Positions 1 to 64,000 of a stretch of 64,000 bases of DNA are shown here, piece after piece. Made by a program: the position numbers and the translations under genes. The DNA lies in NCBI GenBank assembly GCA_965178125.1, contig OZ237746.1, positions 806,001-870,000 on the forward strand, written 5' to 3'. Source of the DNA: Bilabrum cf. latius (lineage: Eukaryota). The notes beneath the pieces are model-generated. The model was not told where the DNA came from. It saw nothing but the letters and a program-made list of their open reading frames with translations, and did not search any database. The stretch's first letter is position 1; each line of letters begins with the position of its first letter.

Positions 1-2110
1 AGCCCCAGCTCCCCGCAGCACCGCCCACAGCACCCTCGCGACAGCCCCCGGCTGCACCCACACCACCCCCTGGTCACGGAGCAGGGAACAAATCGGCTCC
101 GAGTCCGTGTCCCACCCACAGGCCCGAAAGGCCTCCTCGGCCGCTGTAGCGGAGCACAGGCTCGCACCGAACATCCTGCAGCAGGACTCGAGTGCGGGAA
201 GGGCCGTGCGGATGAGCCGGAGGCCAGCGGCATTGGCGGTGGAGACGTTCTTGGCCTTGCATGCCTGGACCAAAGCAGCCCAGGCGTCCCTCAGCCGGTC
301 TCCCAGGCTGAGTGCAGCCAGCGAGGAGTTGTCCACCACCTGGTCCATGTGACGAATGCGGCGCAAGGAGATGCCGAAGGCGGCCAGAGCGCCGTGAAGC
401 TGGCCGGGGCTGGGGCCTGTACCGGCGCCCGCTCCAGCAAGCCCCAAGGAGACATGGGCCGCCCCAGGCGCCCTGCCCCCCCTCGCGGCGACGACGGTGG
501 GGGGGAGAGGGCCCGAGGTTGCAACCACCGATCCACCGGTTGCAACCTCGGCGCGCCCGTCCACTCCCGTCCGCACCACCCGCGGGCCCAGGCCGTCGAG
601 GCCGGGCACGTCGCCCAGGATCGCCTAGTAGGCCCTGTCCGGGGATACCGGTGTGACGAGTGCGATGGGTGGGGACTGGGATGACTCGGAGCCGCTCCCG
701 TGGTGGCGATCCAGCAAGGCTTGTAGCCGCTGTCGCACGGCCGCAGCTCTCTCCACAGAGCCGTTGAGTTCCATGAGATGCGGCTCTTTGGAATCTTGCT
801 CTGAGGGGGGCTCCATGGGTCCACCGGTGGATTGGCTACTGCTGTTCCCTCCGACTGCCTGGCCCCCCGCAGCCGAAGCTCTCCCAGCAAGGAACCTGGA
901 AATACCCCCCGGCTCTAGGATCCCCTGCAGCGACTCGAGCACACACCCGTCCGACCTGTCCAGCACCTGCCCCTGCAGCGCAGCGCCGGCCTCTGGCCTT
1001 CCCAGCATGGCCAGCTGGCTCTCGAGCTGCTCCGCGCGGGGACTGATCCGACCCAGGGGACGGTCCAGCCAGGGAACATGTGTTCCCTGGGGCGGGCCGA
1101 CCGCACTCGTCACACCGGCTGCCTCCATCTGCACGTGCGTGATGTCGAGCAGCCGGATGCGTCGCATGCCACCGCGCATGCGTGGTACGGTGCAGCGGCC
1201 CACCCGCTTGGCAATGGTTCGGACCAGGCTAGATGCCGCTCCGACGGAGATGACCGCGCGCGCCTGTGCGGTTCTGAAGCTGCCACCGTCCGCGCTTGGA
1301 TGCAGTACCATCCAGCACGCTCTCTCCAGGGAGTGCACCAGCGAACGTTCGCCCACGAGCACGTGCCCCGCCAGCTCCAGGTCCCCTGGGAGCACCTGGA
1401 AGGCTGCCTCCCACAGCCGGGGTGCGTGGGAGTCCAGGCCACTGGCACTGGCACTAGGACCCGGAGCCGATCCACCGGTGGATTCCGCCCCGGGGGTCCC
1501 CGCGGATCCGGATCCGGAATTGGATCCGGAGCCGGTGCCGATGCCGGTGCTGTGCTTTCCTGAGGGCCTCACAAGCAGCAGCAGCACCCGCGCCACAGAG
1601 TCCACCAGGATCTCCCGGACGCTTGCCCCCCCACGGGGTTCCGGTCTAGCGGCGGACAGAGTTGCAGCCAGACGATCCAGGTTGCCATGTGCGTGCGCAT
1701 TAGGCCCTCCCCCCGCATTAGGCCCTCCCCCCGCCTGCGCCTCACTGCTGTGCATCTCCATGGCCCGCATGAATAGATCCACCAGCTGCGACATCCTCGC
1801 GATCACGTCGGCCGCCCACCGTTTCCTAAACTCCCGCCTCTCGTGTTCCCTGAGGGCGTCCCGGTGCACGCGCCAACGAGCCTAGCCACCGGTTGCAACC
1901 GCCCATTCCGTCACCGCGATGCAGTAGCTGTCCAGGGAACACAGGCTGCACTTGGGCTAGGAATGGGTCCTAGATGATGACGATGACGATGATGACGATG
2001 ATGACGAAGAACCGGTACCAGTGGACCACTGCTTCCCCTGCCCCTGCCCATGCCCCTGTCCATGCCCCTGCCCCTGCCCATGCCCATGCCCATGCCCATC
2101 CCCCTGCCCC

Positions 2111-2151
<41 letters not shown>

Positions 2152-3717
2152 CTGTCCATGCCCCGATTGGCTGATGCATTGCACGTGACACATGGCCCCG
2201 CAAGACGAGCACGCGACGAATGGCTGTTCCCTGGTGCTGCCCACCTCCTGGCAGGTCCTCAAATCTGGGGTGGTGCCGGGTGGGGTGTGACGAGTGAGAG
2301 TGCACAGGTTGGTAGGGGGGTGCTGGAACGGGTACCCGGCTTTGGCGCATTCTGCGAGCAGACCCGCCGGCAGCCTTGGCAGCAGACCCCCCCGCAAATC
2401 CGGCGTATGCGCGGGGAGGGCGGTCGCCACAGATACCGGGGCTTGGGTCTGGGCTGCCGCGACGGCTTTGGCTGCGGCCGCGGCTGCTTGCGCTGCTCCC
2501 GGCGCTGTGACGAGTGCTACGGCGCCCTGAGCGCTGGATGCGCGGTGTGACGAGTGACTTTGGCCGTGTGACGAGTGTAAGCGGTCCGACAGCATGGGTA
2601 CCTGTCCCCCAGGCATGGTGAGGTCACTCGTCACACTTGCCGGCCCAGTGCCCGCACTCAACACGCTGCTGGCACGCAAACCAGATGACTGTCTCGCGGG
2701 CCCGGTGCTGGGGTATGCCACATGGAGCAACCCAGGTACTGAGGCCCCGCTCAGGGGAACCCTAACCGGAACAGGCATGGCCAAAGGTGACGCGGGCTGG
2801 TGCTGCTGCAGCTGCTACGGCTGCTGCTGCAGCTGCGGTGTGCCATCTGGCCTGCTTGCGGTTGCCCCAGTGAAAGTGCCGCTGGCTGGTGCTTGTTGGT
2901 AATTCCCGCGCATGTCACTGGAATCATACCGAGCTGCGGCGCGCTGCCGATCGCCTATGGTAGAGCGACCGCTGGGGCTGCTGTTGGTGGTGGATCCGCC
3001 CCACTGGCTGTTGCCGCAGCTGCCGCTGCCGCTGCCGCTGCCGCTGCCGCTCGCCAAACTCAAAGCTGGGTCCATGGACATTGCTGCTCCCATTCCGGGC
3101 AATCTCGAGTTTCGGCCTCTCTGCAGCTAGATCCTAGCGCTTGGCAGCTGTATGACTTGTTCTTTCTGGACCGGCGGCCTGCCAGTGGCGTGGATGGAGT
3201 GCTCGTCCCCGTGCAAGTGCTCGTGCTCGCCCATGCCGCGAAGAGCGCCCGAGCCGGGGAGCTGGATCCCACGCCCGAACGACGACATCATGCCAGAAGG
3301 CAACTGCAAATCACCCGCCGTGCCTCCGCTCATAACGCTGTGGCTGCTGTGTACTGTGCGTTCGGACGGCATGGTGAGCACATTGCCACCGGCGGTTGAG
3401 AGCTGTCGTCGTCCGGGTGGAATCTGACGCAGACTCGGGTCGTACTAAAGCCCAGCCTAAGATTCGGAGCTAACGGATCCGTATGCTGAAGTTTGGCTTC
3501 GCGGTATCGTGCCGTCGCGATGCCTTGGGGGCGGCAAGAATTCCCCTCCGGTGAGCGAGCTCCCACCAGCGAGCGACTCACCGCTCGCCAGGCTTGCTGA
3601 CTCAAACCCATCGTGCAAACGACCATTCTACTCCAGGCCCAATTGATTTAGTGTAAGATCCGCCGAGCCACCGGCAGATAGGTCGAACGTATCTTGTGCA
3701 TGGCCCTATCGATCCAT
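1..3717 (-). CDS. Large hypothetical protein (3' end outside window), low-complexity N-terminus and PHD/C1-like Cys/His cluster; needs TAG=Gln
   Basis: ORFs 3127..3381, 2815..3102, 1957..2784 and 625..1869 share one frame and are separated only by TAG. The frame stays open from ATG 3717 (MDRQGHAQ...) to base 1. It contains FVACSSCGAMCHVQC...KCSLC, split by GH/GQ and Ser tracts. No family recognised. Confidence 0.75.
1973..2165. repeat. Coding microsatellites: (GAT/GAC)n and (CCCATG/CCCCTG)n encoding poly-Ser and GH/GQ tracts
   Basis: Directly visible tri- and hexanucleotide arrays. Confidence 0.85.
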
Positions 3718-3944
3718 GCTTGGACAGGCTCGCGAGTCAGAAGTGGAGTGCCTTACGGTCGACGTATACACATATAAGACCCGATAGGACGATACATCGG
3801 CATGCAACGGCGTGGAATGTCGCTGCGTGCTGTTTGGCAAATGTCGATCGATTCCGGACGCTGCGCTGATGGCCACTCAGTTTTGGGCCCACCAGTTAAG
3901 CTTGGCGCGTAAGGGGTTGACTCCACGACAGGCTGACGACCAAG

Positions 3945-6900
3945 ATGCATACCGGGAATGCGTGCACGCGCTTGGGGCGCTAGACTCGCTCTTTGAGGCG
4001 ACTGCGACCGCGCAACCGAGCATTGGCGTCCTCTGTGCGCCGGTCGGCCCTCCAGCGAACGCCACTGAAAGTCGGCATGGCGCTGCACACGTCGGCTTCG
4101 CAACAATCCTAGGATATGACGAAGGATGCCCCGCTTGCGGCTTTCGAAGTGCCGTCCACCTCTGCCGTTGGGCTGGCAACGCAAGGCACATCGTGGAGCG
4201 AGGGCGTGGAAGACGCCTGGAAGCGCGACCTCGCAGAGTTCCAGGCGCGATACGAGAGCGAAGCCACCGAGGATATCCTTCGTTCGAACGTCCACGTTGC
4301 TTTTCTCTGCGACCTGCAGATGAAGCGGTGCTCGCACCTCCTACCCGCATTCCTGGAGCACGTGTTTCGCATCCAGGCCAGGGCCAAATCGGACGGCCGC
4401 GCGCCGAGCCAGTCATTCGCCTCTACCAGGCTCGTCAATCTGCTGCAGGCCGTGTTCGACACAATCCCGCCGGACGCTGTCCGCGGCACCGTCGCCGTCC
4501 TACATGGGCTGCTGGACAGCCGCCTCGACGCAGCGCAGGCGCAGGGGGGAGATGACGCGGCCTCCGCGTCCAGCGGACCCGTGGTGGAGGCGTTCCTTCA
4601 CGTGGGCTTTCTAACCACCGTGATGACCGCCCTGAGGATGTGCCCCTCGACGCAGGTGCAGCCCATTGCGCCGCTCCGCTGGCTGGGCCTCGCCTCCAGG
4701 GGCGAGCTGGCGGATTCGGAGGAGGCCAGGGCGCTTGCGCGGCGCCTTGCGGAACTTCAGCCGCCCACGCCGTACGAGAGGGAGCCCATCGGCACCGGCA
4801 CGGCTTCCTCTTCCTCTGCCACTGCGGGCGCCGCGCACGGGCCCCGGTTCCGCACTGACATGATGGCAGTGCCACAGGCACTCGTTCGACCGGCTGGGCA
4901 GCCCCACATGCCGCCCGCCGACGCGGCCGCGGATTCTGGCGCTGTTCCCCAGGGAACAAGGGCGAGGGATGGGGGCCCCGCCCCGGGGGAGGAGGTGACG
5001 CTCCCGCAGAACCTTCGCGAACTCGACCGGTTCCACAAGTGGACGAGGGACTTTGCCAGCACCCCCTTCCACGCCCCCTTCGGCAAGGACTCCTTCGGCA
5101 AGCTGCTGCCCCCCCCGATCGCATTCGAGGCGCACGAGTGGAGGAGAGAGTCACTGTCGTGGCCCGTCGCCGGAGTGCACTGCACCTTTGACGAGGCGGC
5201 CGCCCTGCTGCTGACATGCGAGGCGCCCACGTTCTTCACCGCTGATTCCGAGTCGTTCACCCAGGCCCAGATGCTCAGGTACCTGTGGATGTACGCGGAC
5301 GATCCGTCGGCGGGCGGCATTTTAGACGACTCTTGGGGCGCCTACCCCCGATTGGAGGAGCCGTCCCAGGGGGGTGTAGGAGGGGGGGGTGTAGGAGGGG
5401 GGGGAACTGAGTCAACCGACGGCCCAGGTGGTCAAGGCGTGACGAGCGGTGACGGAAGCAGCAGTGACAGCGCTGGCACGGGCACGAGCACGGGCACGAG
5501 AAAGAGCAAAGGAAGAGGCAGAGGGGCAGAGGGCAGGTCCACCCGGCCCAAGCACAAAGCCAACTACAGAGGGCAAGCTGTGCCCGCCCCCGGTGCCCAA
5601 GAAGAGGCGACGGCGAAGGAGCTGCGGGCCCGGCTGGACGAGAGGCTGGCGGGGCTGAGCGAGGAGGAGAAGCAATCTATCATCGAGAGGCAGGACCCCG
5701 CCCTTGCCATGCAGAACCCGCAGCTGGCACTGGCACAGGCAGAGTACGAGGCGATGATGAGGGAACAGCAGGAAGAGGGAGAAGAGGGCGGAGCAGGGGC
5801 AGGAACACGAGGCAGCGCGCAGGCACGCATGCGGCTGGCCAAGCGGCTGCAGGGGCTGCGTGCCACGATCGCTGACACGGCCGCTCGCCTCTGGGGGCCC
5901 ACGGATACCCCCTCCCAGCGGAGAGTGAAGGTCATTGAGGCCGTGCATGGGATGCTGCAGGGGTACAACTACGCCCTGCTGGCCTCGTGGATGGACATCT
6001 ACTTCCTCTCAGGGAACAAAGAGGCCCTGGAGGCGGTGCAGGAGGTGGCTGCCGTGTGGACCAGGTTCGGAGCTCTGCCGTTCGCCAAGCGACTGGGAGG
6101 ACAGCGCCCAGGGAACAACAGCGGGAGCAGGAGCAAGGGACCTTCGGACCAGCCGGAGCCCGTGCCGGTAGACCCGCGGGACAGCTTCGCGGCCGGTCTG
6201 GTCTTGGACCGGGATGCCGTGCCTGCACCGCTGGCGGGACCCGGGGCGATGCACACGTACCCTGACGGCTTGCTCGCCCTCGAGGCATCACGCAGCGCGA
6301 TGTTCCTTGCCCTTGTTTTGCTGGAGCTGGAGCCGGCGCTGCTGGAGCGGTTCGGGAACCGGCTGTGGGGCGGTGTGACGAGCAGGTACCTGGCGATGAG
6401 GAAGGTTCAGTCCCAGCGAACCCAGGCCTCCATGCGTGACCTTGGGACGGTGCACGGGAGCGTGGCGTTCGCCCCGGTGTGCGAGCAGTCGCTGTGGGTG
6501 GAGGACGGGGGGACGCAGCCCGGCGACGTGCTGTCCAAGACACGGGCCAGGGACGCTCTGCTGCGGGCCGCGGGGGAGGCCCAGCTGCGGAGGCGTGCGC
6601 TGTATGAGGGTCCACTGGTGGGTCTGAGGGCCATGGGGGGGGAGGAGGAGGGGGCCTCGGAGGGGAGGTGGGGGGGTCTTCTGGACGTGGAGGGGCTTGG
6701 GTGGAGGGGCTGGGGGCATGGGGGGGAACCCCATGGTGGGGGCCCGGGGGTGCTCAGGGGTGCCCCCGAGACAGTGACGTCACTCTACTCGGACAACAAG
6801 GAGAGGAAATCGGCTTGGCCCGCGCTCAAGGCGCCTATCCTGCGGGCGGTCACCCGGCGGGGGATGTTCCACGGTGCCGCCGACGCCAGCATCCAGCGGA

Positions 6901-7322
6901 GGAAAGAGAGGGGCATGCTGGAGGACTACGGGGAGGAGGACGAGAGGCTGGCGCTGCAGGGGCAGGTGCCTACTTCCGCGAGGGAGAAGCAGGAGATCGA
7001 CGGGGAACCCACGGAGGACCCCGAGAGGGTGTGGACCCCGGGGAACCCCCAGTTCGCCTGCAACTTTGGGGTCACGAGGGACTCGGAATCGGGAAGGGTG
7101 GACCCAGGCTCGACGGCGTACCGGGAGAGGGCGTGGGCAGTGGCGCGACCCGCGTACGAGGGTGAGATTTCTCTGTACACGCACCACGTGTTCCGTGAAT
7201 TTGTGGTCAGCAAGGTGGAGCAGACGGGGCTGCTGGGGCACGAGTCCACGCTGGCGGGGTCCGGTGTGTTCGGGCAGAAGTTCCAGGGGGGCGAGGGAGG
7301 GAGGAGTGGTGGCAGGCAGTGA
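3945..7322 (+). CDS. Hypothetical protein (~1125 aa), probable mitochondrial presequence
   Basis: The 1068-aa ORF 4116..7322 ends in TGA. Reading through TAG 3981 and 4110 extends it to ATG 3945, giving an Arg-rich, acid-free leader (MHTGNACTRLGRQTRSLRRLRPRNRALASSVRRS). Alternative starts are 4077 and 4116. Confidence 0.7.
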
Positions 7323-7580
7323 GCGTTGTTAAAGTTTTGTGAATAGATTCGGATGTACAGGGTTTTTTTCAACGTCCAGATGCTCGGGTTGCGTGGAGCA
7401 CTGGCCGTCGGTTTTTATCTTTTTCTTGAAAATTCAACGAATGGTGGTTGCAACCGCTCCCGGCGGCGAAACTGGCGAGGCGAGCAAAGGATTGCTCACA
7501 CTTGATGCACGCTTCGAATCGAGCGCGACTCTGCCACCAAGAAGCCATACATAAAACACACTAAAACTGTATTTGGCTGC

Positions 7581-9332
7581 ATGCAAGGTGAAGCGATTGC
7601 GATATCCTAGCGCGCGATGGTGGCTCCGCATTCATCGAGTGACCTCGCTGGTGTTCTGGAAGAGGCCTGGGGATGGAGCAGGCTGGCAAGCGCAATTTTC
7701 GCAATAGCTGCCATACTTGGTGTGATAGTTGCATTTGTAGACACGCAAAAGGTGGTTGGAATCATATTGCGCGCAGCGATTGGTGCACTTGCACTTGCTG
7801 CAGTTGCTTCCATCTGCAAGAGCTGCTAGGTCCAGCGAATTGCCGCAAACATGGAGAAAGAGCTCATTGAAGAGTAGTTACAAGCCACAATTGTTGAATC
7901 GCGGGCTGACCAAGTCGCAGACGAAAGCTACAGCCGCACATCGTCGGCAGAGTCCTGCCCCGCGGCTCCGCTCCAACTAGCACCGATCACCGCGGATGCT
8001 TCGGACACGGAGGCAGAGAGCATCATCTCCCCGGTTAGCACCACCGGCCTGTTAATGCACTCACCCACCCATTTTCACTCCATGTTTGGCGAACCGCCGC
8101 ATGAATAGACCGCAGCAGGGAAAGAGCGGGTCGTGAGTCGCCACAACCACCTCACCGTGGCAAGGCACGGACAGGGGTAGGGGCAGGGAGACGGGGGGCG
8201 GCAAAATCGCAGGCAGGGGTAGCAATAGCAGGTACCACCCTTGTCTCCCTGGCGGGCCCCGCGACTGGATTTCCTTCCGTCGGCGGACAGCGTTTCGGGC
8301 GATGGCACATCACCTGCGGAATCAGATTCCAATCACCTGGGATCGCAACCATTCGACCACGTTGGGACAGCACCAGCGAACGATCACGGGCAGCATATCC
8401 ACAGCCCGGGGCGGTCCAGCCCCCTGGCACCGCGGGGCCGGCAGCAGCAGCAGCAGCAGCAGAGCCGGCGCCAGCGCGGCCGTCGTCGTCGGGAGAGCAT
8501 CAGCAGCAGTGGTGGTGGCCGATGGCAGCAGTCTCCCGGTCGACGATCGCCACACCGTGCTCCCGCTGGGGTCAAAAGGGGTCGTTCGTCACACTAGCGC
8601 GCAGCACGCGTGTCTCCCACCGACATGGTGTGGATGGGCGCGCTGGGTCTCGGCCCTGAGCCGCAGAGTGCGGCTGCTTCGGGTTCTGCTGGTAGTCGGC
8701 TGGGGGGGCGCTCATCGAGGCATCCGGATGGGCGCGTTCCAGGGAACAGCAATCCTGCATAGGCCGGTAATGATCGGTCCTATCAATGGGAGGCGGCCTT
8801 GGATCGCACTCGCCCATCGGTGGGGGGAAGAGGGGCTGCTTGCTAGCATGCCACTGCCAGTGGTGAGGCATGGGCAGAGATGGGGCGGGGGCGTGGAGGA
8901 GGAGAGGATGTTGCAAGCGTGGGACTTTCCATTGGACAGGGGCAGCCAGCACCAGCTGAAGAGGCAACAGCGGTTCAGGCACAGGCACAGATGCTGGCAC
9001 ATGCACATGTGCAGGCACAGGCACATGTCCAGGCACATGCACCAGTCACCACCCCGTGCTCCATCTGCCTGGAGCCCATGGTCACCATCACCCCAGGCAG
9101 CAACACCGATACAGACAGGCGAGTCACCCTCCCATGCGCGCATGGGTTCCACGCTGGCTGCATCGAAGGGTGGGAGAGGTCGTGCATCGAGGCATCAAGG
9201 GAAGTGAGGTGTCCGGAGTGCAGGCATCCGTTCGGGGGGCGAGGAGTGGGTGGCGGAGGCGCAGGCGGGGGCGGGGGCGGTGATGATGAGGATGGGTACA
9301 GTGGCGACGACAGCGACTCGGAGTCAGACTGA
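7581..9332 (+). CDS. Transmembrane RING-H2 E3 ubiquitin ligase-like protein (~580 aa)
   Basis: ORFs 7617..7829, 8241..8597 and 8880..9332 are in one frame joined by ~10 TAGs. Two N-terminal hydrophobic helices; C-terminal CSICLEPM...LPCAHGFHAGCIEGW...CPECR; TGA stop. Start is 7581 or 7617. Confidence 0.8.
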
Positions 9333-10976
9333 GGCGATTGTGGTTTAACGATCCGGATGAAGGCTCGATTGAGGAAAGATACGGAACATCAAAACGCGCG
9401 GCGCCCCACCATCCACTGGATCCGTCGGTTGTAACTTACCCCGACACATTCATCACACCAATTCTTGACCGCAACGATCCCCGACACAATACAACTCGTC
9501 GATTATCACGCGACATCAATAGCGTATCTTCCATGTAATGAGGTTTTTTCATTGTGTAATTAGTGAATTACCATACAACCACCGTAAGGCTAACGAGAGG
9601 AGCAGCACGCTGATCCAAATGCCACTGAAACCACAGTCCACGCTGCATCCCTATTGTGCAATCATTTCGACGAATAGAATGCGCTATTGGTCGACTTCAT
9701 TACAGATCAAATAGGTATTTAAAACAAATCACCGCTCCAGTATGTCACAGAGAGTCCATTAGAACCGAGGATGGTCTCATTTGACGTCAGATCTCGATTC
9801 ATTTTGGGCAGAATCCAATTCACCACTGTCCTGATACACTTATAGTTTATTTATACATACGATTTGTTTGTGTATGGTACTGTATTTGTACAGGTCCTAC
9901 AATTTCGCAAGTTGTGGCTGTTTCCAGTGGTTTGGTACCATTCAGAACACAATTGTGTCAAATCTATGAGGCCAGTACTAGTTTGAGACTAATCATGGTA
10001 TTAATATACCTAATAAAAGGCAGTGTACGGATTTTCAGTCCCAATGGTGTAGAATAGCATGGCGTACTTCAGGTCTTCTGGATCTGGCCACCCGCACAGC
10101 TGCTGGTGCTGCTCGTGTCCTAATGATGGCCATAGTAGCCTCCTGTTCGATTTTCTGAATACGATCAATACAAAAAATGTAGTGGTTGGTCTCAATTCGC
10201 GGTAAGCTGCAGATTGGTGAGGTAAATGTGCAATAGCTAACTCTGCGGCCTGGTTCAGTCATCCTCACGGGAAACACCCTACTCATGAACCGCACAGCAG
10301 AATATGAGCGCGTTATTTGAATAAAGTCATCAATTTGCTCAGAATTATGAGGAGTGTAATCAAATTCAGTATCTCAGAGGGCCAATCGAAGCAAGTTTGT
10401 TGCGGCTGCCAGAGGGATGACCGTGGACCCTGTCGTGTCCAAATGAATCTTATTCAGACATTCGTCTGCACAGCAGCGTATAATTTAGCATCATTATCAT
10501 ACAGGTATATTTTTAGGTCTATTTTGTAGACTAGAAAGGGGTATGCGGGCAGTGTCGGGGTGTCGTGCGACACTAATCACACAGTTTTGGCGCCGCGCAA
10601 AGCTGCAGCTCCCTGCTAGAGGCCAATTCTTTGAATGGCATGTTAACAGACTTAATCTCATCGTATGGAGTTGAAAGGCGCACCAGCAGACTCGCAAGAG
10701 CGCGCTGAATCGAATTGCATCATGATTTCTTCTCCGAATTATCTGGGCGCCGCGCAAATTGCTGATCCGGAACCGGCAAAAACCAGTAAATTGTGTATTG
10801 TTCCGTTACATTCGACGGATTCGTTGTTGGATTCTGTGCATTTCTCGAACAGAAAGATACAATACGTGTGTACCAAAAGACGATATTATTAGAGTAGCCA
10901 TGCGTAATTATTGACCGTATCCGAGTCGTGTTGCTCGATCAAACGCCTGCCCAAAGGTGTATCCGTTGCGACCGGC

Positions 10977-33652: not shown

Positions 33653-33888
33653 TAGGCAGGAGGTACTTGCCTATTAGACCTGCAGTGCGAGCCATCCACC
33701 GTGGGCGTGCCTTACCAGTTACTACGCGTGCATTTGGTTTAATTCCTCCGCAGTTAGATATGGTAGCGCTTTGGGAGCCCAAGCCCAACCAGTCCGATTT
33801 GGGTGGATTGGCATGGATTCGGAGCCGCCAGCACATCGGTGGATTTTTGCATTTCAGCTGTTGAACTAGATCTAGCACTGTTGATACA

Positions 33889-51700: not shown

Positions 51701-51764
51701 TACTGGCGAGCGAAATCACAGTCACAATCAAGTGTATACACCTGCGAGGTTGTAATCGATCCAT
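36788..51764 (-). CDS. Giant cell-surface protein (~4959 aa): signal peptide, 30 FG-GAP (integrin-alpha-type) repeats, long ectodomain, Cys-rich stalk, ~8-9 TM helices; exons 44637-51764 and 36788-44539
   Basis: All FG-GAP ORF fragments are in one frame, and all post-intron fragments are in one frame. About 38 interruptions, all TAG. N-terminus MDRLQPRRCIHLIVTVISLASTNVIG; repeats FGxSxAxLGDMDGDGVPELAVGA...GAVWVLFL; TGA at 36788-36790. Confidence 0.85.
43693..43880. repeat. 78-bp coding tandem repeat (~2.4 copies, Thr/Ser-rich mucin-like)
   Basis: Units start at 43693, 43771 and 43849; they encode TASTTSTSSATPTPTHNPTRRSRSML. Confidence 0.9.
44540..44636 (-). other. Spliceosomal intron (97 nt, phase 0) in the FG-GAP gene
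   Basis: GTAAGT...TCGCAG; removal exactly joins the two long frames. Confidence 0.85.
50545..51550. repeat. Near-perfect 432-bp tandem duplication (two FG-GAP repeats per unit)
   Basis: ORFs 50715..51134 and 51147..51566 are almost identical and offset by 432 bp. Confidence 0.9.
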
Positions 51765-53135
51765 CAAAGATGCACGATTTGTCTAGTATTGTTCGCATCC
51801 AGATGAAGCAATCAGATCGTCAACGCACGGCTCGAGAAATATAGCAACGCAAGTACCCGGATCATAGGAGTCACATTGATGTTAGACTACAAGAGATGCT
51901 CGACTAGGAGGTATCGTTCGCAGGAGTTCTTGCAGGAAAGCCCGACCCGCACCCCCACAATTAGCCTGCCCCTCAAGCGGGCCTTGTCAGCCTCATCAAC
52001 CAGTGCTTCATGCGTTCAAGCCATTATTCTATTAGTAAGTGTATGCATGGGTCATAAAAGTGTTGAACAACCAGTATAAAAACAGCAACAGTCGATTCAT
52101 TTGCATTTGGACACGCGTCCAATTCTGGACACTCGCACTCTAGCGAATACTTTTTCTTACTTCATGGTACCACAGAGATACGTGTACATCAGCCTTGCTT
52201 ATTAAACGTAGCACAGATGTAATCCTTGCTTGGCCTTCGCTGAGCGAACTCCTTCAAACGCAGCACCTCACTGGATACCAACCAGCACACAATTCACACG
52301 AACGAAACCGACCCTTCGGAACACTGCAGTGCAGGCACCGGGGCTGGGCGGTTCTATCTCCGTAGCTCGAGGCTTCCTCCTTATTTCGTGATGGTAGCTG
52401 TATAATTATGCTTTAATTGTTATTATGTAAACGAAACGCACACCGGTGCTTCGACAGTTGCTCGACAACACAAGTATTTCGCTCAGTATTTCGCTCAGGA
52501 ACAACACAAGTATTTCTTTTGGTTTCGTGGCACCATGCTAGAATACTGTGTGTATTAGGTTCGCGATCAATTAAGGATGGGGGCCAGTTGGAGTCCTTTG
52601 CTTGCCATTCATCCGGGTACGGTCACAGAAGTCACACCAGGCCACATGCGGATGGATGTGGGTCCGCAGCATGTCATACCTGCCACAAAATAGCATGTGA
52701 TAAGCGCATTCTCCGCTGCTAAGCATAGCTTGGAGCTCAAGTCGCCCAGTCCAATGCAGTACAATCCAATCCAGGATACAGCCTGGCTTTGCAATCGCCA
52801 GGGCTCTCGACCAGCCTGAGGCCTGCTATCGACTGCAAGCCATTGCACGGTCGTTTTCACAATATTATGGATATGGGTATGCGCAGCATCCGCAGTACAA
52901 GTATATTCCGTCGTAACTGCGTCTTGACAGCATACTCGCCAAGCCAGCCTCAATGCTAGACATCTAGCCAACAATGAATCAGGCCCAGACTTGCACGGCA
53001 TGCCGACCCCTTTGCCCAAACTCGATCAGTTTGGCTGGGTCACCAAGTTCACCATTTCCGAAATACAACAACGCTGGCTATAGGAAGGAGCATGCATGGA
53101 ACCTCGATTGACCAACCATCCGACCGATCAACCGA

Positions 53136-54941
53136 TCAGAGGGCCGGTTTCGCCCCTCCGCTGCTCACCTCGCCGTTGCCAGCGAGCGCCCTGCCCTCCT
53201 CGTCCAGCGCCGCCGCCAGCCTCTTCTCCAGGTCCGAGGGCTCGGATCCCGTACCGGCCCCTTGTTCCCCCGACTCCCCGCCTTCCCGCACCCTCTTGCC
53301 CTCTTCGTCCCGAGAGCTCTCTACCGCGGCAGTGGTGGCCAAAGCCACCGGGTCCAGCCGAAGCAGCCGAAGCATCCCGTTTCCCACGTCGCCCCCCGCA
53401 GCAAGCCCCTCGTGCGCCGCGTCTGCCGCTTCCTCGCCGTACCTGTGCCGCACCACGGTCTCGGTCGCTCTCGCGCTCTCTTTGCCCACCACCCTGAGTG
53501 CCTCCTCCATCCCGTCCCACACGTCCCCCAGAGCAAGCAGAGAGGCGTGTCCCACCTGCATCGCTGCCTGGGCCGTGCTGCTCTACCCCGCCGCCTCGAT
53601 CGTCTCCTTGCCCTTCTCCGTGGATGCCACGGTCTTGTACACCGCCCGGCCCAGCCCACGGGCCATCTCCACCGCAGTCACCACCACCCCCGAGGCCACC
53701 GTGCTGGCGGCGCCGGTGGCCATCCTGGCCCTGGCCAGGTTCCGCTTCGTGTTCTCCGAGACCTTCACCTCCTTGCCCTCCTCCACACCCTCCGAATGTC
53801 CCACCACGTACGTCCCCAACCTCCCGATCCCGTAGCCCACGTACTGCGCGCCCACCACCAGACCCCGCCCCGCCACCTTGCCGCTGTAGCTGATGGCTCC
53901 GCTGACCCTGTCCACCGTCAGATTGTCCTGCACCGTCTGCACCGCGCTCCCAGCCAGTTCCCTGCCCTTGCTGTACAGCGCCGTGGCGTTCTCCACCGTG
54001 CATTGTTCCCTGGCAGCGGCCAGCGAGGTGCCCACTGCCGCGAGCCACCCGCTGGCCACCGCTGCCACGGAGGAGGATGACCCGCCCTCTTCTTCGCCGT
54101 CCTCTTTCTCCGGGTCATCGCTTCCACCTGCACCTGCATGCCCTGCACCTGCACCTGCGCCTGAGCTCTCGCCCTCTCCCTTGCCGGCTGGCTCCTCCTC
54201 CATCCCCTGCTCCTTCCCCACGGGCGGGTCCTCCTCCTCGGCCTTGGACCCGGCTCCATGCCCCGCCCCGCTGCCGCCCGCAGAGGCACGTTCCGGCTCC
54301 GGATCCTCCCGGTCCTCCCCCTCCCCGTTGTGCATGGCCAGCCGGAGCGCCGCCGATGCCACCGCCTGCTGCTCGTCGAGCATCTGCTCAGCGCCCATGC
54401 CCCTGCTCGCAGCCTCAGAGTTGACGGCCACGGCGGCATCCGCGTCCCTCGGAGCGACGACCTGCCCCGTCTTGGAGTCCACCAGCTGCAGCCCGCGGGC
54501 CAGCTGCGCCTCCAGGACAGCCAGGTCGCCGTCCGCGCAGTCGTCCGAGACGCGGAGGCAGTGGAACTCGCGCGCCGCCGCACCGGGAAAGACGTACACG
54601 CCTGGCCCTGATCTTCGCGCTAGCTGCCCTGACAGAGGGTACACCCAGGTGCCAACTCGAAGCATCACGATGCGTCCTTCCGTATCTGTGACTTGCTCGG
54701 TGCTCGCCGCGTCGGACGCGGACCCAGGGGTTGGCGGAACGTCGCTTACGCTTGCTCGCACGATGACTAGGTCGCCCTGCTGCATCATGCCAACCTTTCC
54801 GTCCTTGACCACGCTGGCGTTGCACAGTGGCAACTGCAAGAGGATTTCTGCGCTGTCTTTGGGTTCCTCTCCGCTGGCTTCTCGCTGCATGATGGCAGCC
54901 GTTGGGTGATCGCTCGCGAATGAAGTGGAAACACCTGCCAT
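53136..54941 (-). CDS. Senescence/spartin-associated domain protein (~601 aa)
   Basis: C-terminal ALGDVWDGMEEALRVVGKESARATETVVRHRYGEEAADA resembles the spartin senescence domain. One TAG (53583) lies inside that domain; TGA stop. Confidence 0.8.
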
Positions 54942-55207: not shown

Positions 55208-58200
55208 ATGGAGACGACAATCGGAATGCTGACTGCCGGCGGCAAGGCGAGGGCCTCCAGCACATCCAGAGCACAATCTAAGGTGGTGCGTCGATCTAGA
55301 GCACCAACGTCAGGCCGGTAGGCAAGTGGGAGCTTGGCACCGTCTGCGGCAGCCTTGCATGGCACCAAGCAGCCGTCCCGCAGGGAGCTGGAAGCAGTCG
55401 CTGCAGGCGTCGTGCCTGGCACCTCTTCGATCGTAGGGGCCACGGTGCGCGGACTAGCCTTAGGAAAAGGTGTTGCGTCCACACAGCCAGTCGCAGCCGG
55501 CGCGCGAAAGCCACCAAAAGGAGTCGGCGGCCGCTCCCGCATGGCGCCCTCGACGATGCTCCTCTCGCTGGCGGCGGGGGATGCGCAGCTGGCGAGGGCG
55601 GCCGAGGTAGCGGGATCGGGGGCAGGGAACGACGGGTCGGTCATTCCCGGGCGGCGGTCGGAGGCACCTGCCCGGTACAAGATCACAGAGGTGAGACACA
55701 CAGAGGCAGCGGCAACTGCATGGCATGGCAGTGGCAGTCGCGCGATGACAGTGGTAGTGGCAGGGGCATGGCAATGCCAGTAGCTCAGATGATATGAGCG
55801 AGCTGGCCCACCACTTGTCCATCCCCCTTGCCATGCGCACGCACTCGCGACTCGCACGCCGCCACTGCCCCCCCCTCTCTCGTCTCCAAGGATGCGTTCA
55901 GATCCCTCTGCTCTCTTGCCGCACCACTCGTCACACCCACTCCCTCCTTTCTCCCCACCAACCGCAGCTGCTGGACCTGAAGGACCACTCGAGCCAGCCG
56001 TGCGCCGTGCCCCTCTCGCAGCCCATCTTCGTGCCCCTGCCCGCTGCGGTGCACTTCTCCCAGTACGAGCCCTTCCGGCCCGAGGAACAGAGACTCATCC
56101 TGAGGAACACGGACAGGGTCCCGCGCAGGGTCAGGGTGGTCAAACCCGACACGCAGCATTTTTCCGTGCGGGGTCCCTTCGACGGCGCGGGGCGGCCGCT
56201 CTAGGACTCGAGGGTCGCGCCTGGCACCGAGGTGACGTACACCGTGCGCTTCGACCCCGCCGAGGCGGCCGATTACGCGCACGACCTGACGATAGTGACG
56301 GAGCGGGAGAAGTTCATCGTGCCCTTGAGGGCGGTGGGCCCCCGGGCGTTCCTTACGCTCCCCGATGCGGTCGAGTTCGACTCTACCCCGTGCCGCACGG
56401 CCACCACCCGGCGCTTCATGGTGAGGAACGAGGGGGCCAAGGACGCCGTGGTGCGGCTGTAGACGAGGCTGCCGGGTGGCATCAGGGGGGAGTGCCCCTT
56501 CGCGGTGGAACCGGCGCGGGCCCGCGTGGCTGCCGGTGCGGCTCTGCAGCTGACGGTCACGTTCACCCCCCCCACGTCCGACGAGCACGAGGGGGAGCTG
56601 GAGTGCGTGTACCTGGACGAAGAGGGGGAGGACGGCGGGGATGATGATGATAGCGGTGGTGGTGACGAGGATGCGTATGGCGCTGGCGGTGGGATCCGGG
56701 GGGGGCTCGGCGGATCCACCGGTGGATTGGCGGGGGTGGAGTCCAAGGGACCCGAGGACGAGGACGAGGACGAGGACGACGAGGATGATGATGTGGGGGC
56801 CCCCGCTGTCCCCAGAAACCCCGTGGCCGTGGTGCGGCTGCTGGGCACGGGTCACGACACGGACGTTGTTCTCTCTGGATCCATGCTCTCCTTCCCCGAC
56901 ACGTACCTTCAGCTGGCCTCCACCGCCACCGTGAGGCTCACCAACCGGAGCGAGAACCCCGTGCGGTTCTCCTGGCGAGCCATGGCGCACCGGGGGGTGG
57001 AGCAGGACGAGAAGGCCCGGATTCAGGCCGCTCTGGAGGACCAGCGGAGGAGCGAGGCCAGGGCGGTGATGGCGGACAGCGTGCGGGGCGGGGGCAGCGC
57101 GGCGGACGGGGACCTGAGCGAGGACGAGGAGGAGGGGGCGGCGGCTGCCGCGGGTGACGAGGGGCTCGCCGCAACGCAGGCCAGCCTTGGTGGCGCGGCG
57201 CGGCCCTCGCTGGAGGCCCGCGCACAGCTGCAGGCAGCGGAGAGGAGGCACCGCACGATGCGGCGGGAGGCTGCCGAGGCACCCTTGCTGTTCGAGGACG
57301 GTGCCTTTCGGATCGAGCCTCTGGAGGGGCAGGTGTGGGCGCACTCGGAGCAGGAATTCACCGTGACGTTTGTTCCCCAGCACGCGGGGGCCCACGAGAT
57401 CTCGGCCTTTCTGGAGGTGCAGGGGCGCGAGAAGAGGCTGCCGCTGGTGCTGCGGGCCACCGGTGTGGGGCCCAAGGCCATCCTGTCCTTCGACCAGCTG
57501 GACATGGGCGATGTCACTGTGACGAGTGTGAGGAGGTACGAGCTGCAGCTGTTCAACAAGGGCGAGATTCCGTGCGAGTGGTCCGCGGCGGGGTCCATGG
57601 GCCCGTTCGCCGACTGCTTTAGGTTCAGCCCCCCCAGCGGCGTGCTGCGGGTGGGGGAGAAAGTCGACCTGGAGATGGAGTTCTGCTCCAGGCAGCTGGG
57701 GGAGGTGGCGGAGACGGCCGTGTTCGAGCTGGTGGGGAGCGCCGACCCCGTGCCCCTGCAGCTGAGGGGGCAGGTGGTCCCTCCCGCCCTGCAGGCGGAC
57801 GTGGACGCTTTCACCTTCGGGCGCGTGGGCTTCGACTTCGAGTACCCCGCCCGCGCCAGGCTGCACAACCTAAGCGATGTGCCCGCACTCGTGCAGCTGA
57901 GGGTACCCGACGATTTCGAGGGGAGGAGGGCGGAGTTCCGGCTTAGGCCCGCCCCTTTGGCCATCGAGGACGGGAGCCGATCCGAGGAGGGGGGGGAGGA
58001 GAGAGGGGAGGACGGGGGGTAGGAAGAAAGCGAAGGACCCCAGGAGATCCCCCCTGGCGGGAGCATCCCCATGAGCGTGGTGTTCCACCCCAGGACGCTC
58101 AAGCAGTACGCCACCGCCGTCAGCGTGGACGTGGTGGGGGTGGGCAAAGGCGTTCTGGCCGTCCCCGTCAAGGCCTCCTGCGGTGTGGGCGAGCTGGTGC

Positions 58201-61200
58201 CGGGGCAGAGCCCCCTGCCCTATGACGAGTGCTTCCTGGGGAGGGAGTACGGCGTGCCGCTGCTGCTGCGGAACCCCTCGCCGAACCTTCCCTCGAGGTT
58301 CGTCGTGGAGCCGCAGGACCCGCAGGCGGCCGCCGTGGCCTCGTACAGCGTGACCCCCAGCACGGGGGTCATCCCCGCGGGCGGGGAGGTGGAGGTGCGC
58401 GTGGGTCTCACGGTGCGCAGGATGGGCCCCGTGGCGCTCCCCCTGCGTCTGTCCGCGCGCGGCTGGAGGGAGATGAAGCGACCGCCGCTGGAGGTGGAGC
58501 TGACGGCCACGGGGGTCGGGGCCCGGATCGAAGCGGAACCTCCCCTCCTGGACTTTGGCGCCGCGCGCTGCCTCCTCGATAAGCGGTCCTCGGTGACGCT
58601 CCGCAACACCGGCGACATCCCGGCGCAGGTGAAGGCCTTCATCGTCGGCGACCGGTCCAAGTTCAGGCTCGCCACCGCGGCGGACTGCGACTTCAGGCTG
58701 GGGGCCGGGGAGGCAAGGGAGGTCGCCCTGATTGTGGCTCCGGACGACGCCAGCCGGTGCGCGGACGATCTCGGGCTGCAGGTGACGAGCCTGCCGCTGG
58801 AGGCGGAGGGGGTTGCGAGCGGCAGCGGGGGCGATGAGGGCGATGGGGATGGCGCGGGGATGGTGGCGCCGGGGTCCCAGGGCAGCGGCGGCTTCGGTTC
58901 CACCCCGTCTGTCGCGGCGCCCGTGGCGGCCGTGACGGTTCCGCTGCGAGCCCGGGGCGTGGGCACTACGATCTGGAGTGACAGCGACCTGTCCGTCGTG
59001 GATTTCGGGCCCGTGCTGGGGGGTCGGCCCCACGAGCGGGAGTTCGTCCTGGAGAACAAGGGCAGGCGGGCGGTGACCCTGCAGTGGATGAACGCCACCC
59101 TCCGAGAGAGGACGCAGAGGCACAAGAAGGAAGAGAGAGACCGCCCGGGGGGTCCCGCGCTGGCCACGGGGCCGGCCCTGGAGCGGGCGGCGGCGGCCGG
59201 AAGGAAGGCCAGGGCGAGGAGGGCGGCGGCCGTGGAGCGGGCCCGCAGGAGGCGCAGGGAGCGGGAGAAACAATCGGGGGGTGGTCAAAGCGGCGAGGGT
59301 GCTTCCGCAGATGGTGGTGCCACTGGTGGGTCTGGGGCCGACGGGGGCAGCGGCCGGGGTATTGCGGGGGATGCGGAGGAGTCGGGCGGCGACGGAGGGC
59401 ACGCGCACTTCGGCGCCTCTCGACGGGCGGGAGCCCCTGCCAGCGGGGCCGGGGCCGGGGCCGGCAGAGGCAGGGGTCGTGGTCGTGGGAGTGCTCGCGG
59501 GGCGAGAGGGTCGACGGGCGCCGATCGTGGACGTGGCGATGGGAGCAGCGCAGGTCGCGGCAGTGGCAGGGGTAGGGGCAGGGGCAGGGGCGCGAGGAGA
59601 ACCGGGACAAGGGGACGGCCGTCCGCCGCAGCCTCCTCCCAGTCGGTCTCCTCCTCGGACCCCCCTGTTCCCCCGCAGCCAGCGGACGCCAAGTACCCGG
59701 GATTCGAGGAGGGCCTGCCCCCGCACCCGGACTCTCTGTGGGAGCCCGGGGATGGTGACCCGCCCCCCGAGCCCCTGTTCAAGGTGGAGCCGCCTCAGGC
59801 CCAGCTCAAGCCCAGGACGGCCGTGCGGTTCCGGTTCTTCGCCGAGAGCGCCAGCGGAACCGGCGCCGCGCGCGAGCTGCTGCAGTGCATGGCTCGCACG
59901 CAGAACGAGACGCGGGCCAAGAGCATCTTCAACTGCGACATGCGGGCAAGGTTTGTGGCTCCGGATCTCGTGTTCGACCCCCCCCGGCTGGAGTTCGGGT
60001 ACGCCTGGGCCCCCCCCCGCGCGGGGCTGGATCCTCCGGGGGCGCTGGGCCACGGGGAGCTGCCCCCGCCCCCCGAGCTGCCGGTGCCTCCGCCCCCCCT
60101 GCCGCACGGGGTCCGCGCCACGGACCCCCCGGTTGACATCCCCCCTGTCCCCACCGGTGGGGACAGCGAGGCCGAGGCCGAGCACGAGAGGCAGGTCAGG
60201 GAGGCTTCCCAACTGGAGGAGCTCAAGCAGAGGCACGTGGCATTCGCGGAGGAGGCCAAGAGGGTGCACGAGATCGAGCAGGGCAGGAGGCAGGTGGTCA
60301 CTCAGACCCAGACGGTGGTGGTGCGCAACGTGAGTCCCCTCCCGCTCGAGTTCAAGGCACGGGCCAGCGCGCCCTTCGTGCTGGATGCCACGGCTTTTTC
60401 CTTGGCACCCGGTGCGTCCGCCGAGCTGGGCGTGTCGCTGACCCCCCACTACAAGGGGGACAGGCGCACCCACCGGGCCCGCGGGGAGGTGGTGCTGATG
60501 GGCGGTGGTCACGCCAAGAAGGCCCGTCTCCCCCTGGTGGCGGAGATCGAGTATCCGAACGTGGAGGTCTCCACCCACAGGCTGGCATTCGGCCAGGTGC
60601 TGGCGGGGGCCAAGGCCAGCGCCACCATGGAGCTGACCAACCCGTGCTCCACGCTCCCCGTGGACGTGCAGTGGGCCTTCCTGGAGGACGAGGACGACAA
60701 GGCAGCGGCCTTGAGGCAGGGGCAGTACGTGTCGCCCGCGGACTGCTTCGACGTGCGGCCCATGCGGCTGAGGCTGGCACCGGGCGAGACTGCCCCCGTG
60801 GAGGTTGTCTTCCAGGGGGCCCCCGCCGGCTCCGGATCCTCCGGACTCGGAGCCAGATATGTGGCGGACGCGCTGCTGGCCGTGGAGGGCGGGCCCGAAG
60901 AGGAGGTGCAGTTCAGGGCGCAGCCCGGCGCCATCAGCTTCCGGCTGGATCGGCAGAAGATCGATTTCGGGGACGTGCCGTTCGAGGCAGAGGCGCGGCA
61001 GGACGTGCAGCTGTACAACGCGGGGTCCGTGCCGTTCACGTTCGAGTTCGACTCCGACGTGCAGTCGGGTGGGTCGTAGCAGGGCAGCGGGGTCGGGCAT
61101 TCCGGCTCCGAGTCTAGGCTTGGGACGAGGGCCGGTACGGCCGCGGCCGGGGAAACGGATCGGGCGCCCGCCCCAGGCGGTGGCAGCGGCGGCGGCCCGT

Positions 61201-64000
61201 TCACCGAGTCCATGCGCTGCGTGCCGTCGCGGGGCAGGGTGCTTCCCAAGCAGACGGTCACCCTGCAGCTGAGGCTGCTGCCCGGCCTACCCGGCAAGAT
61301 TGAGGAGACCGTGCTGCTGCGGGTGGGCCACCTGGAGCCGCAGGCAATCCAGGTGCGCGCCAACGCGGTGTTTCCGCTGGTGACGCTCCCGGGGCTCCGG
61401 CGGAGAGACGCCCTCGAGTGGTCTCAGGCGGTGGAGGATGCCGAGGCCGAGCTGGTGAGGCAGGAGGGGGCCAGGCAGCGGGAGGCGGCGGTGCAGGCCC
61501 AGAGGGTGGCCCTCATGGTGGACGACCCGGAGGCATAGCAGGAGCAGGTGCAGGGCACTGCGGGGCTCAGGGGGGATGCCTCGATGAGCACCGTGGACTC
61601 GGCCTCGTCCAGCCTGGTGCTGCTGCCGCCGCTCGGCGGCGGGGATGACTCGGGTGTTGGTGCGAGCGGCGGCAGCTCCCAAGCCGATGTGGGCGGGAGC
61701 GGGGGCACGCAAGGTGCACCACCACAACCACCGTTGCGAGGCGGCGGCGGGGACGATGACGACGGCTTCGAGCCCCTGGACGGCGGGCAGCAGCTACCAT
61801 CGGGCGTCTCGCTAGCGGACGCAGCCGCGGCTCAGGAGGAGAGGGAGGACCAGGCGGCTGGGCTCAGCACCGCGAGGGGGGGGCCTTCGTCCAGGCAGGG
61901 AACAGGGGGCCGCAGCACCCGGGGGTCCGATGGGGCTCTGGGCGAGTCCCACGATCTCCCCGTGGACGTTGTTCCCCAGGGCCCGGCCTACCCCGAGGGC
62001 TGGACCTCGGACGGGCGGCCCCCGCTGGAGCTGGTGGAGGCAGAGGCCACGAGGGCGCTCTTCGTGCGGTTCCTCAGGGAACAAGAGGTCGAGCTGGCCG
62101 AGACGGCGATGAGGAAATCCAGGGCAGCCAGCAGGCGGGCGGCATCCAGGGCGGGCGTGGGCGGGCCAGGGCCCGGATCCGTCTCAATGCCCAGGGCTCC
62201 ATCTGCCGCCGCCTCCATGGTCTCGTCGTCGACGGTGAGGGGCGCCACCGCCACCGCAGCCGTGCAGCTGCCCGGGGGCCTGGCGCCGCGCGAGAGGGAC
62301 GCACTCGTCAGGCGGCACGTGACCGGTCGGTTCGTGTGCGATCTGGGGGCGGCGCATCGGGGGTCGGGGCGGCGGCAGCGCACGATAGAGCTCAAGAACG
62401 TGGGCGGGCGGGCGGCCAGTGTCACCGCCGACACGGGCCGGATGGCAGAGCTGGGCATGCGCATGGACCCCGGTAAGGTGGCCAGGCTGGCACCCGGCGA
62501 CAGCGCCAGTGTGACGATTGCGTACCAGGTGCCCCGCCGCGCCAAGCTTGGCGTCCACGAGATCGAGGCCGTGCTGAGCTGCCCGGGGGGGCCCTCGGCC
62601 GTGCTCGTGGTGAGGCTGCACGTGACGGAGCCCGCGCTGCAGGTGTACCCCAGGGTGCTGGACTTCGGGTGCATTGCACTGGAGCACGAGCGGATCGAGC
62701 CGGTGCTGCTGATCAACCCGACCCCCCTGCCGGTGCAGTGGGAGAGGGGCCAGCTGACGACTCTGTCGCCGGACAAGAAGGAGGAGGGCGAGCTGTTCCA
62801 GGTAGACCCCCCCGAGGGCGGCATCGTGCCGGCCAACGGGGCCTCACTCGTCACACTGAGGTTCGCGCCCACGCCCCGGCTGGCGATGAAGCCCCCGCCA
62901 AAGGCGAAAAGCAGGGGGGCGCGCACCGCCAGCCGGGGAACACGTTCGGGGGGGGTAAGGGACGCGGCAAGCGGGCGCCACCGCCCTGCCGCTGTGGCGG
63001 GGATCTGCCTCCGGTTGCGACCGGTGGGCGCCCCCGCCGGGGCCGCCTCCCAGATGCCCAAGAAACTGACTCCCCCGAAGGAACTGACCACGGGCGGACA
63101 CGGGCCCACCGGCGGGCCGGGCCCCGGCGCCACCCAGGCTACCCCCCTCGTGACTGCTCCCCTCCTGTGGGCAAGGGGAGCCACCGAGCTGCTGTCCGTG
63201 CAGGTGGACCCCCCGCGCCTGGACCTCGGCCACGTGCTGCCTGCGGGCGGCAGGGTGGTCAAAGGCGAAGGTGGCGAGGGTGGTCCGTCCAGCGGTGCCG
63301 GCGGTCCGCCAGGAAGCGGGGAAGCGGCTTCCTCATCGTCCAGCGATGGATCCGCCCCTTCGCCTCCGGGGCCCTACGACGCACACGCGCTCGTCACACT
63401 GCGGAACCCCTCCGATTCCCGCTGGATGGAGGTGGCGGCGCCGCAGCTCGACGCTCAGCTCCAAGCGGAACAGGCTGTGCTGTACGCCGCGGGGCAGCTG
63501 CTGGCTCGCGGGGTGGACCTGTCCTCTGGTTTGGACGAGGACGACACGGCTGGGCTGGGCGTCGGTATGGGAGGGGGAGGTGGCGGCGGTGGGCTGTTTG
63601 GCGGGATGTTGGGCGGTGGCGTGCTGCGGCTGCCCCCCCACGTGCCCGGGGAGGGCCTTCCGCGGTGGCTGCTGCAGGCAGTGAGCCAGGCGGGGCAGGA
63701 ACAGGGGCAGGAGGCCGGGGGTGCTGGCGGGGGCATGGAGCCTCCTGCCTTCAGAGGAGCTGCTGAATAGGAGGATTAGCAGGTGCAGGAGCTATAGGCG
63801 GGTGACACAGGAAACCGGGGCTAGGGTCCTCCTCCCCGGTGGCCCGCCGGTCCACCGGTGGATCGGTCCCCCCGCGCCGCAAGCTCCGCACTCCGTATGC
63901 TGGGCAAGGCAGTGACCGTGGCCGTGTCGGCGCCCCCCTGCGGAGGGGAGGGGCAGGTGGCCGGGGCGCTTGCAGACAAGCTGTCCGGGCCTGTGCTCAC
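55208..64000 (+). CDS. HYDIN: HYDIN-like axonemal central-pair protein (5' part; exon 55208-55690, then 55968 to beyond the window)
   Basis: ITE|LLDL...IFVPLP...LILRNTDRVPRRVRV...DYAHDLTIVTEREKFIVPLRAVGPRAFL matches the HYDIN N-terminus as I recall it. Tandem ASH/Ig-like modules follow, with a degenerate P-loop-like segment at the window end. 10 in-frame TAGs and no TAA/TGA. Confidence 0.88.
55691..55967 (+). other. Spliceosomal intron (277 nt, phase 0) in HYDIN
   Basis: GAG|GTGAGA...pyrimidine tract...CCGCAG|CTG; the join gives KITELLDL. Confidence 0.8.

Follow-up and report, generated by a model that had tools for sequence, protein, structure and literature searches.

Nuclear genetic codes in which UAG specifies glutamine while UAA is not reassigned correspond to NCBI translation table 15. 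Here we describe a 64-kb stretch of DNA (the window, by which we mean the whole stretch analyzed) whose long genes are crossed by in-frame TAG codons, and we conclude from its sequence that UAG is very probably read as glutamine in this organism, UAA not being a sense codon, and that the reassignment is real. Among described systems, passages of PMC5304391 report reassignment of UAG alone, to glutamine, in the fornicate Iotanema spirale, with UAA and UGA as stops. The window resembles Iotanema, as portrayed in those passages, in that only UAG is reassigned, to glutamine, with UAA not sense, and in the predicted mechanism, a tRNA-Gln(CUA) together with a change in the release factor eRF1. It differs in its setting: the same passages present Iotanema as an anaerobic metamonad, known from transcriptome data and using UAA as its primary stop, whereas the window has 62% G+C and stramenopile best named matches, UGA ends 12 of its 12 gene ends, and no TAA end is seen.

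The same codon table, with UAG but not UAA read as glutamine, is attributed in parts of PMC11687900 to the ciliate Protocruzia tuzeti and two phyllopharyngean lineages. Unlike these ciliates, the window carries long GC-rich genes on a multi-gene contig, and its HYDIN protein falls, in a tree without ciliates, with stramenopiles and a sequence filed under Symbiodinium sp. KB8. Those parts of PMC11687900 also list UAG as leucine in a rhizarian and as serine in Scotinosphaera. The broader change in which both UAG and UAA (UAR) encode glutamine, NCBI table 6, occurs in ciliates, hexamitin diplomonads, ulvophycean green algae and Amoeboaphelidium (passages of PMC2984419 and PMC5304391); the window is like table 6 in turning a stop into glutamine and in the stop-matching tRNA-Gln to be expected, and unlike it in that TAA is not sense. 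Searches of full-text literature, with supplements and subscription journals lying outside them, turned up no nuclear code change for bicosoecids or for any other stramenopile, and passages of PMC6733595, PMC11412368 and PMC12817076 mention none in these groups. The public sequencing runs used below date from 2025, and a description may be in press.

In-frame TAG codons and the residues they replace

Under the standard code the window falls into many medium-sized open reading frames (ORFs). With TAG read through, it resolves into 12 very long frames, each of 600 to 2,750 codons, which lie on both strands with short spacers between them; together with a VOC/glyoxalase gene and a three-exon V-ATPase subunit c gene, these make 14 genes. 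In 14 ORF pieces, each taken from its first ATG and together 18,463 codons long, there are 100 TAG, 0 TAA and 0 TGA in frame, the two zeros following in part from how the frames were delimited; 3 more TAG lie upstream of a first ATG. Read in its other two frames, this DNA has 235 TAG, 81 TAA and 706 TGA, or approximately one TAA or TGA per 47 codons, so that frames of 1,500–2,750 codons that stay open once TAG is read through are far beyond chance. TAG occurs in 12 of the 14 genes and is missing only from the short VOC and V-ATPase c genes. An earlier sequence-only reading of this DNA had counted about 100 in-frame TAGs in 11 of 13 genes; the count stands, and the gene tally becomes 12 of 14.

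That reading had further proposed that frames and protein domains continue past the TAGs, and this is borne out by the long open frames and by Pfam domains recognized downstream of TAGs or across them in most genes: a RING domain after 10 TAG, WW domains after 6–7 (the last after 7), and ARM, FkbM, FG-GAP and HYDIN Ig domains, with a Senescence domain spanning its TAG. The TAGs stand in for single residues within conserved motifs and add no length. Contigs from four public runs, belonging to three studies, cover parts of positions 1–17400 and show no differing letter at any TAG. Because identical letters recur in contigs from three studies, the TAGs are not sequencing errors; the contigs of all four runs keep every TAG they cover.

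We evaluated the identity of the residue encoded by TAG using repeated motifs and paralogues. The gene designated g04 encodes 11 IQ motifs, and their defining glutamine is CAG in 10 of them and TAG in the eleventh (position 15057). Paralogous segments were collected more widely by scanning ungapped 25-residue windows at an identity of at least 55%, which yielded matches for 29 TAG sites: 14 lie in columns with a glutamine majority, 6 in one column with a tyrosine plurality, and 9 in variable columns. In the FG-GAP repeat protein g10, the TAGs include 5 in 'HQKIS', 6 in 'FDGQL' and 6 in 'GD?FG' columns. The five 'HQKIS' sites (44958, 46368, 47772 and 48207, singled out by the sequence-only reading, and additionally 50076, all within 'H?KIS') align with 17–19 CAG against 1 CAT, and the six 'FDGQL' sites, among them 45786, 46539 and 49380, with 9–12 CAG, 2–4 CAT and a few others. 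The TAG within 'DGM?Q' (46041) faces CAG in 3 of 3 paralogous copies, and one in 'GGLQL' faces CAG in its single copy (1/1). For the ARM-repeat TAG at 19632 ('LR?AVVDAG', in g05), the paralogous repeats carry Gln 9 times, Arg 4 times, and Val and Ala once each. Pooling all paralogous matches gives 171 Q, 76 TAG, 38 Y and 23 each of L, G and H.

Two further kinds of site agree with glutamine. In the tandem leucine-rich repeat (LRR) genes g07 and g08, the TAG at 34054 (g08) stands opposite CAG at 30972 (g07), and the TAGs at 8220 and 8226 (g03) and at 17142 (g04) lie inside glutamine runs. The IQ, ARM, FG-GAP, LRR and glutamine-run positions had all been cited in the sequence-only reading as glutamine positions, and every TAG coordinate it named proved correct.

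A comparison between species came from the HYDIN-like gene g11, for which relatives were found at one locus in metagenome contigs and at none in the genome contigs or viral contigs searched. The metagenome contig (L001; 4,352 bp, 62% GC) carries a relative's HYDIN orthologue, with 76.7% amino-acid identity over 1,146 aligned codons, and its ORF of 1,188 codons contains 4 in-frame TAG of its own, 0 TAA and 0 TGA. Across the two species, TAG is present at seven sites. At the four of these that are well aligned, TAG is always paired with CAG, two in each direction: where the window has TAG, at 56202 and 56460, the relative has CAG, and window CAGs at 57792 and 57894 are TAG there. The two genes differ with a ratio of nonsynonymous to synonymous substitution rates (dN/dS) of 0.097, a dS of ~1.7 (near saturation) and a third-position identity of 47%, indicating that both copies are functional and under purifying selection and that the species are not close. 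Judged by these alignments, TAG and CAG interchange between the two species like synonymous codons, and a second, deeply diverged species shares the code. Conserved-column analysis, which had been proposed as a check on the assignment, accordingly comes out for glutamine, at 14 of the 29 paralogue-matched sites and at 4 of 4 well-aligned orthologous ones.

Codon usage points the same way. With TAG included, the glutamine codons comprise 536 CAG, 127 CAA and 100 TAG, a TAG share of 13%. This share drops as the G+C content of third codon positions (GC3) rises (Spearman rho −0.88, p 6e-5, 13 genes), so TAG behaves as a minor synonymous glutamine codon. Were TAA also glutamine, the CAA/CAG ratio of 0.237 would predict ~24 in-frame TAA, and 0 are seen (Poisson P ~5e-11); the code is therefore not the UAR = Gln code of table 6, which the 100 TAG against 0 TAA in frame rule out. 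All 12 gene ends in the window, those of eleven ORFs and of the V-ATPase c gene, are TGA. From the off-frame TAA:TGA counts of 81:706 (TAA being about nine times rarer), 0 of 12 TAA ends has a probability of ~0.28, and since TAA is rare by composition, this result is compatible with UAA being a stop or not. Together, the IQ motif, the repeat columns and the orthologue pairing all support the assignment of UAG to glutamine made by the sequence-only reading.

Contrary evidence, rival explanations and predicted decoding

Several observations weigh against the glutamine assignment. In the 'GD?FG' column of g10, 6 TAG align with Tyr 5–7 times, Leu 3 times, Arg 1–2 times, one CAA and 5 other TAG; the column is variable, also showing Leu, Arg, Glu, Asn, Ser, Phe and Gln, and would fit tyrosine as well as glutamine. 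Nine further TAG sites fall in variable columns (Ala, Asp, Gly, Cys/Leu, Pro, Met and others), and between g07 and g08 (43–53% identity) TAG stands opposite Ser, Glu, Gln, Arg, TAG, Glu, His, Ser and Met. Three of the seven TAG sites in the HYDIN orthologues are opposite ATT, GAG and GGT, in low-complexity, poorly aligned stretches. Because most of the glutamine evidence comes from paralogues and a close orthologue, in which CAG and TAG are one mutation apart, it reports interchangeability under selection rather than a direct read-out of the amino acid.

Distant homologues were compared as well. For HYDIN (28 matches as source, of which 24–25 homologues aligned at the TAG positions), the columns are variable or gapped, with Gln in 1 of 24 at position 238 and in 0 of 24 at position 152. 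The column of the Senescence-domain TAG (residue 519) is also variable, with Gln in 10 of the 137 sequences aligned out of 150 representatives (S 22, E 15, A 12, N 12, P 11, Q 10, K 10). These distant columns are uninformative on what TAG means. Furthermore, tRNA scans of the 64-kb window and of L001 found 0 tRNA genes, and hence no tRNA-Gln(CUA), eRF1 is encoded on neither, and the support summarized above is at the level of DNA, where editing of U to C would look alike.

Four other explanations were considered. The one that survives best, though we judge it unlikely, is an ambiguous code in which UAG is mostly glutamine and also acts as a terminator in some contexts, for example towards mRNA 3′ ends, a type of code known from Condylostoma, karyorelicts and Blastocrithidia. 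Codes with such dual stop and sense meanings do exist (passages of PMC4967479), the sample of 12 gene ends is small, and g10 has a TAG 19 codons before its TGA, where a true stop would be indistinguishable from a sense codon. All 12 of those ends are nevertheless TGA, no gene visibly ends at TAG, and at least 8 genes have Pfam- or paralogue-supported sequence after their last TAG; there is no case of homology stopping at a TAG.

An assignment of UAG to another amino acid, such as Tyr, Glu, Leu or Ser, is less probable again. Parts of PMC11687900 document UAG codes for Leu, Ser and Glu in other eukaryotes, and tyrosine codons form the plurality (5–7) beside the 6 TAG of the 'GD?FG' column. Against this stand the invariant glutamine of the IQ motif and the 'HQKIS' and 'FDGQL' columns, which are CAG or mostly CAG, the TAG/CAG pairing at 4 of 4 well-aligned orthologous sites, and the TAGs within glutamine runs.

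We consider it highly improbable that the standard code is retained and that nuclear U-to-C editing converts UAG to CAG before translation. Editing would yield the same TAG/CAG correspondence, and the evidence is DNA-level, none of the runs being on record as RNA. It would, however, require a site-specific change at ~13% of all glutamine codons, at positions that differ between two related species. Moreover, contigs of runs X6 and X7, which are only guessed to be RNA and may be DNA, keep TAG at 15513, and X6, under the same proviso, also keeps it at 16359, 16689 and 17142. We know of no nuclear precedent for U-to-C editing of this kind. Finally, artefact or decay (sequencing or assembly errors, pseudogenes, short in-frame introns) has nothing specific in its favor beyond one unexplained frame break in g07 and is ruled out, its residual probability being negligible, by the same letters in three studies' contigs, the pattern of 100 TAG to 0 TAA and 0 TGA, and the dN/dS of 0.097 against an orthologue bearing its own TAGs.

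On the preferred reading, UAG as a dedicated glutamine codon, decoding would involve a tRNA-Gln with anticodon CUA. This anticodon is expected because UAG is sense and UAA is not, and CUA mismatches UAA at the wobble position. Such a tRNA would most simply have arisen from a mutated copy of tRNA-Gln(CUG), and eRF1 would have lost, or been weakened in, its recognition of UAG. The same argument from tRNA and eRF1 is made for Iotanema in section 9 of PMC5304391. For Iotanema eRF1, a T32G substitution is reported, at a residue in contact with the third-position G.

Genes of the window and lineage

The genes, in order along the window, are as follows.

1..3876, minus strand: g01, ORF with its 3′ end off the window; first ATG at 3717; 9 in-frame TAG
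3921..7322, plus strand: g02, 1,125 codons; 2 TAG close to the 5′ end; TGA end
7506..9332, plus strand: g03, RING-finger protein; 10 TAG; TGA end
10908..17270, plus strand: g04, protein with LRR, 11 IQ motifs, B-box and 3 WW domains; 7 TAG; TGA end
15057..15059, plus strand: TAG of g04 at the Q of an IQ motif, CAG in the other 10 IQ motifs
17631..22265, plus strand: g05, protein kinase with a long ARM-repeat array; 6 TAG; TGA end
23157..27773, minus strand: g06, glycosyltransferase-like and FkbM methyltransferase-like protein; 5 TAG; TGA end
27905..28468, plus strand: VOC/glyoxalase-family gene (protein P0041), coding sequence without TAG; TGA end
28755..29527, minus strand: V-ATPase proteolipid subunit c gene, three exons, without TAG; TGA end
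30738..33652, plus strand: g07, RNI-type LRR gene; 7 TAG; TGA end
33865..36609, plus strand: g08, tandem paralogue of g07; 5 TAG; TGA end
36788..44572, minus strand: g09, membrane-protein-like, 2,577 codons; 13 TAG; TGA end
44562..51881, minus strand: g10, FG-GAP repeat protein, 2,400 residues; 26 TAG after the first ATG; TGA end
53136..54941, minus strand: g12, Senescence-domain protein; 1 TAG, inside the domain; TGA end
55749..63998, plus strand: g11, HYDIN-like, running off the window; 9 TAG after the first ATG

The g01 product is of low complexity, with a weak TrAA12-like match, and g02 matched no Pfam family and had no homologue at E <= 0.001. In g03, both glutamine-run TAGs and all 8 others lie upstream of the RING domain. 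The V-ATPase c gene is interrupted by two short introns, which start with GTGAGC and finish with CAG, and its first exon is AT-richer. No intron is seen in the 12 large genes, which reach 8 kb, and introns seem limited to short genes in the window. Spacing is tight in places: the first ATG of g09 follows ~40 bp after the TGA of g10, both genes being on one strand (44521–44564), and the divergent first ATGs of g01 and g02 are ~230 bp apart (3717–3945).

The LRR gene g07 contains a frame break, with two frames overlapping at 31397–31469, where its tandem paralogue g08 is continuous. The break may stem from a frameshift, a short intron or faulty assembly, and the TGA that closes the first piece of g07 belongs to it and is not a gene end. 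Identity between g07 and g08 is 43% in the first part and 53% in the second, and their C-terminal parts (32900–33650 and 35860–36606) are far more alike than the N-terminal ones, with long identical peptide runs, which suggests gene conversion or recent partial duplication.

Between g03 and g04 lies a segment of ~1.4 kb (9420–10820) that is AT-richer and without an ORF. Its depth in run X2 is ~14 times that of its flanks (582 versus ~42), and it is bounded by an imperfect 25-nt inverted repeat (9382–9406 and 10745–10769, 80% complementary). The segment is possibly a non-autonomous transposon present in multiple copies. Depth peaks shared by all four runs (up to 3,310) occur at 2321–2900 and 15661–16820 and coincide with low-complexity coding repeats, simple Gln/Ala-rich and Gly/Gln-rich. 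The reads in these peaks probably derive from many loci or organisms, and the peaks would then not reflect copy number. A scan of the window against Rfam at gathering thresholds returned 0 matches, with no rRNA in the window.

The spliceosomal introns, the HYDIN gene and the gene content mark the window as nuclear DNA of a flagellated eukaryote. The best HYDIN matches are the partial sequence filed under Symbiodinium sp. KB8 (39%), followed by MAST-3, Achlya, Aureococcus and Phaeothamnion at ~30%. In a 20-row HYDIN tree, a single-gene analysis from which bicosoecid and ciliate rows are absent, the window is sister to the KB8 sequence (SH-like approximate likelihood-ratio test, SH-aLRT, 100) beside stramenopile rows. 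The KB8 protein (P0013), the nearest HYDIN on record, is 45% identical over 813 columns and is encoded on a 10-kb contig; its source may be a contaminating flagellate and not the dinoflagellate.

For the VOC protein, the best named match is Cafeteria roenbergensis at 74%, with bacteria scoring nearly as high, and the nearest atlas cluster is eukaryotic, most commonly Oomycota. Cafeteria roenbergensis is also the best named match of g12 (38%, E 6e-32, among 1.84 billion representatives searched). In Cafeteria the two genes share a 652-kb contig, three locus tags from each other, and their window counterparts lie ~25 kb apart. Ordinary annotation gives the Cafeteria proteins at full length (539 and 183 residues). 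The identities are low enough to put the window organism in a different genus at least. On these matches we lean toward a heterotrophic stramenopile near the bicosoecids, compact, GC-rich and poor in introns. A green-algal origin, suggested by the low-complexity GC-rich proteins, was rejected: in the HYDIN tree, Volvox and Apatococcus are placed away from the window, and the best matches are to Cafeteria and stramenopiles.

A database protein of 145 residues from a relative (P0163) is 66% identical to the N-terminus of g12, aligning to 54507–54941 on the minus strand. It ends directly before Gln212 of the window protein (CAG, 54504–54506) and, as far as the protein itself can tell without its DNA, looks like a standard-code gene call that ended at a TAG.

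Significance of a UAG = Gln code in a GC-rich genome

The codon table of the window is of a known kind, and the lineage is new as far as we have found. Only tentatively, and with somewhat less confidence than in the placement of the organism itself, do we suggest a first nuclear code change in stramenopiles, involving at least two deeply diverged, GC-rich, bicosoecid-like species in which UAG is glutamine, UGA is the sole terminator in practice, and UAA is neither sense nor a detectable stop. To our knowledge, most stop-to-glutamine codes come from AT-rich genomes. If true, a case at 62% GC, with UAG making up 13% of glutamine codons, would test codon capture under AT pressure against ambiguous intermediates driven by tRNA changes.

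Nuclear code changes are rare, and those that split UAG from UAA are rarer still, passages of PMC5304391 and PMC11687900 describing a handful of lineages. The window would add an independent origin in a lineage for which the literature we found reports no code change. As the evidence is genomic DNA and not transcripts only, the predictions of a tRNA-Gln(CUA) and an altered eRF1 are directly checkable on the full assembly, and a GC-rich genome together with a second, deeply diverged species would allow the manner and timing of its spread to be studied by comparison. Standard-code gene calling would split most large proteins of this organism and its relatives, as it does for 12 of the 14 genes here. 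Because such calling cuts these genes, and because P0163 stops at a glutamine of the window protein, metagenomic protein catalogues probably hold shortened versions of this clade's proteome.

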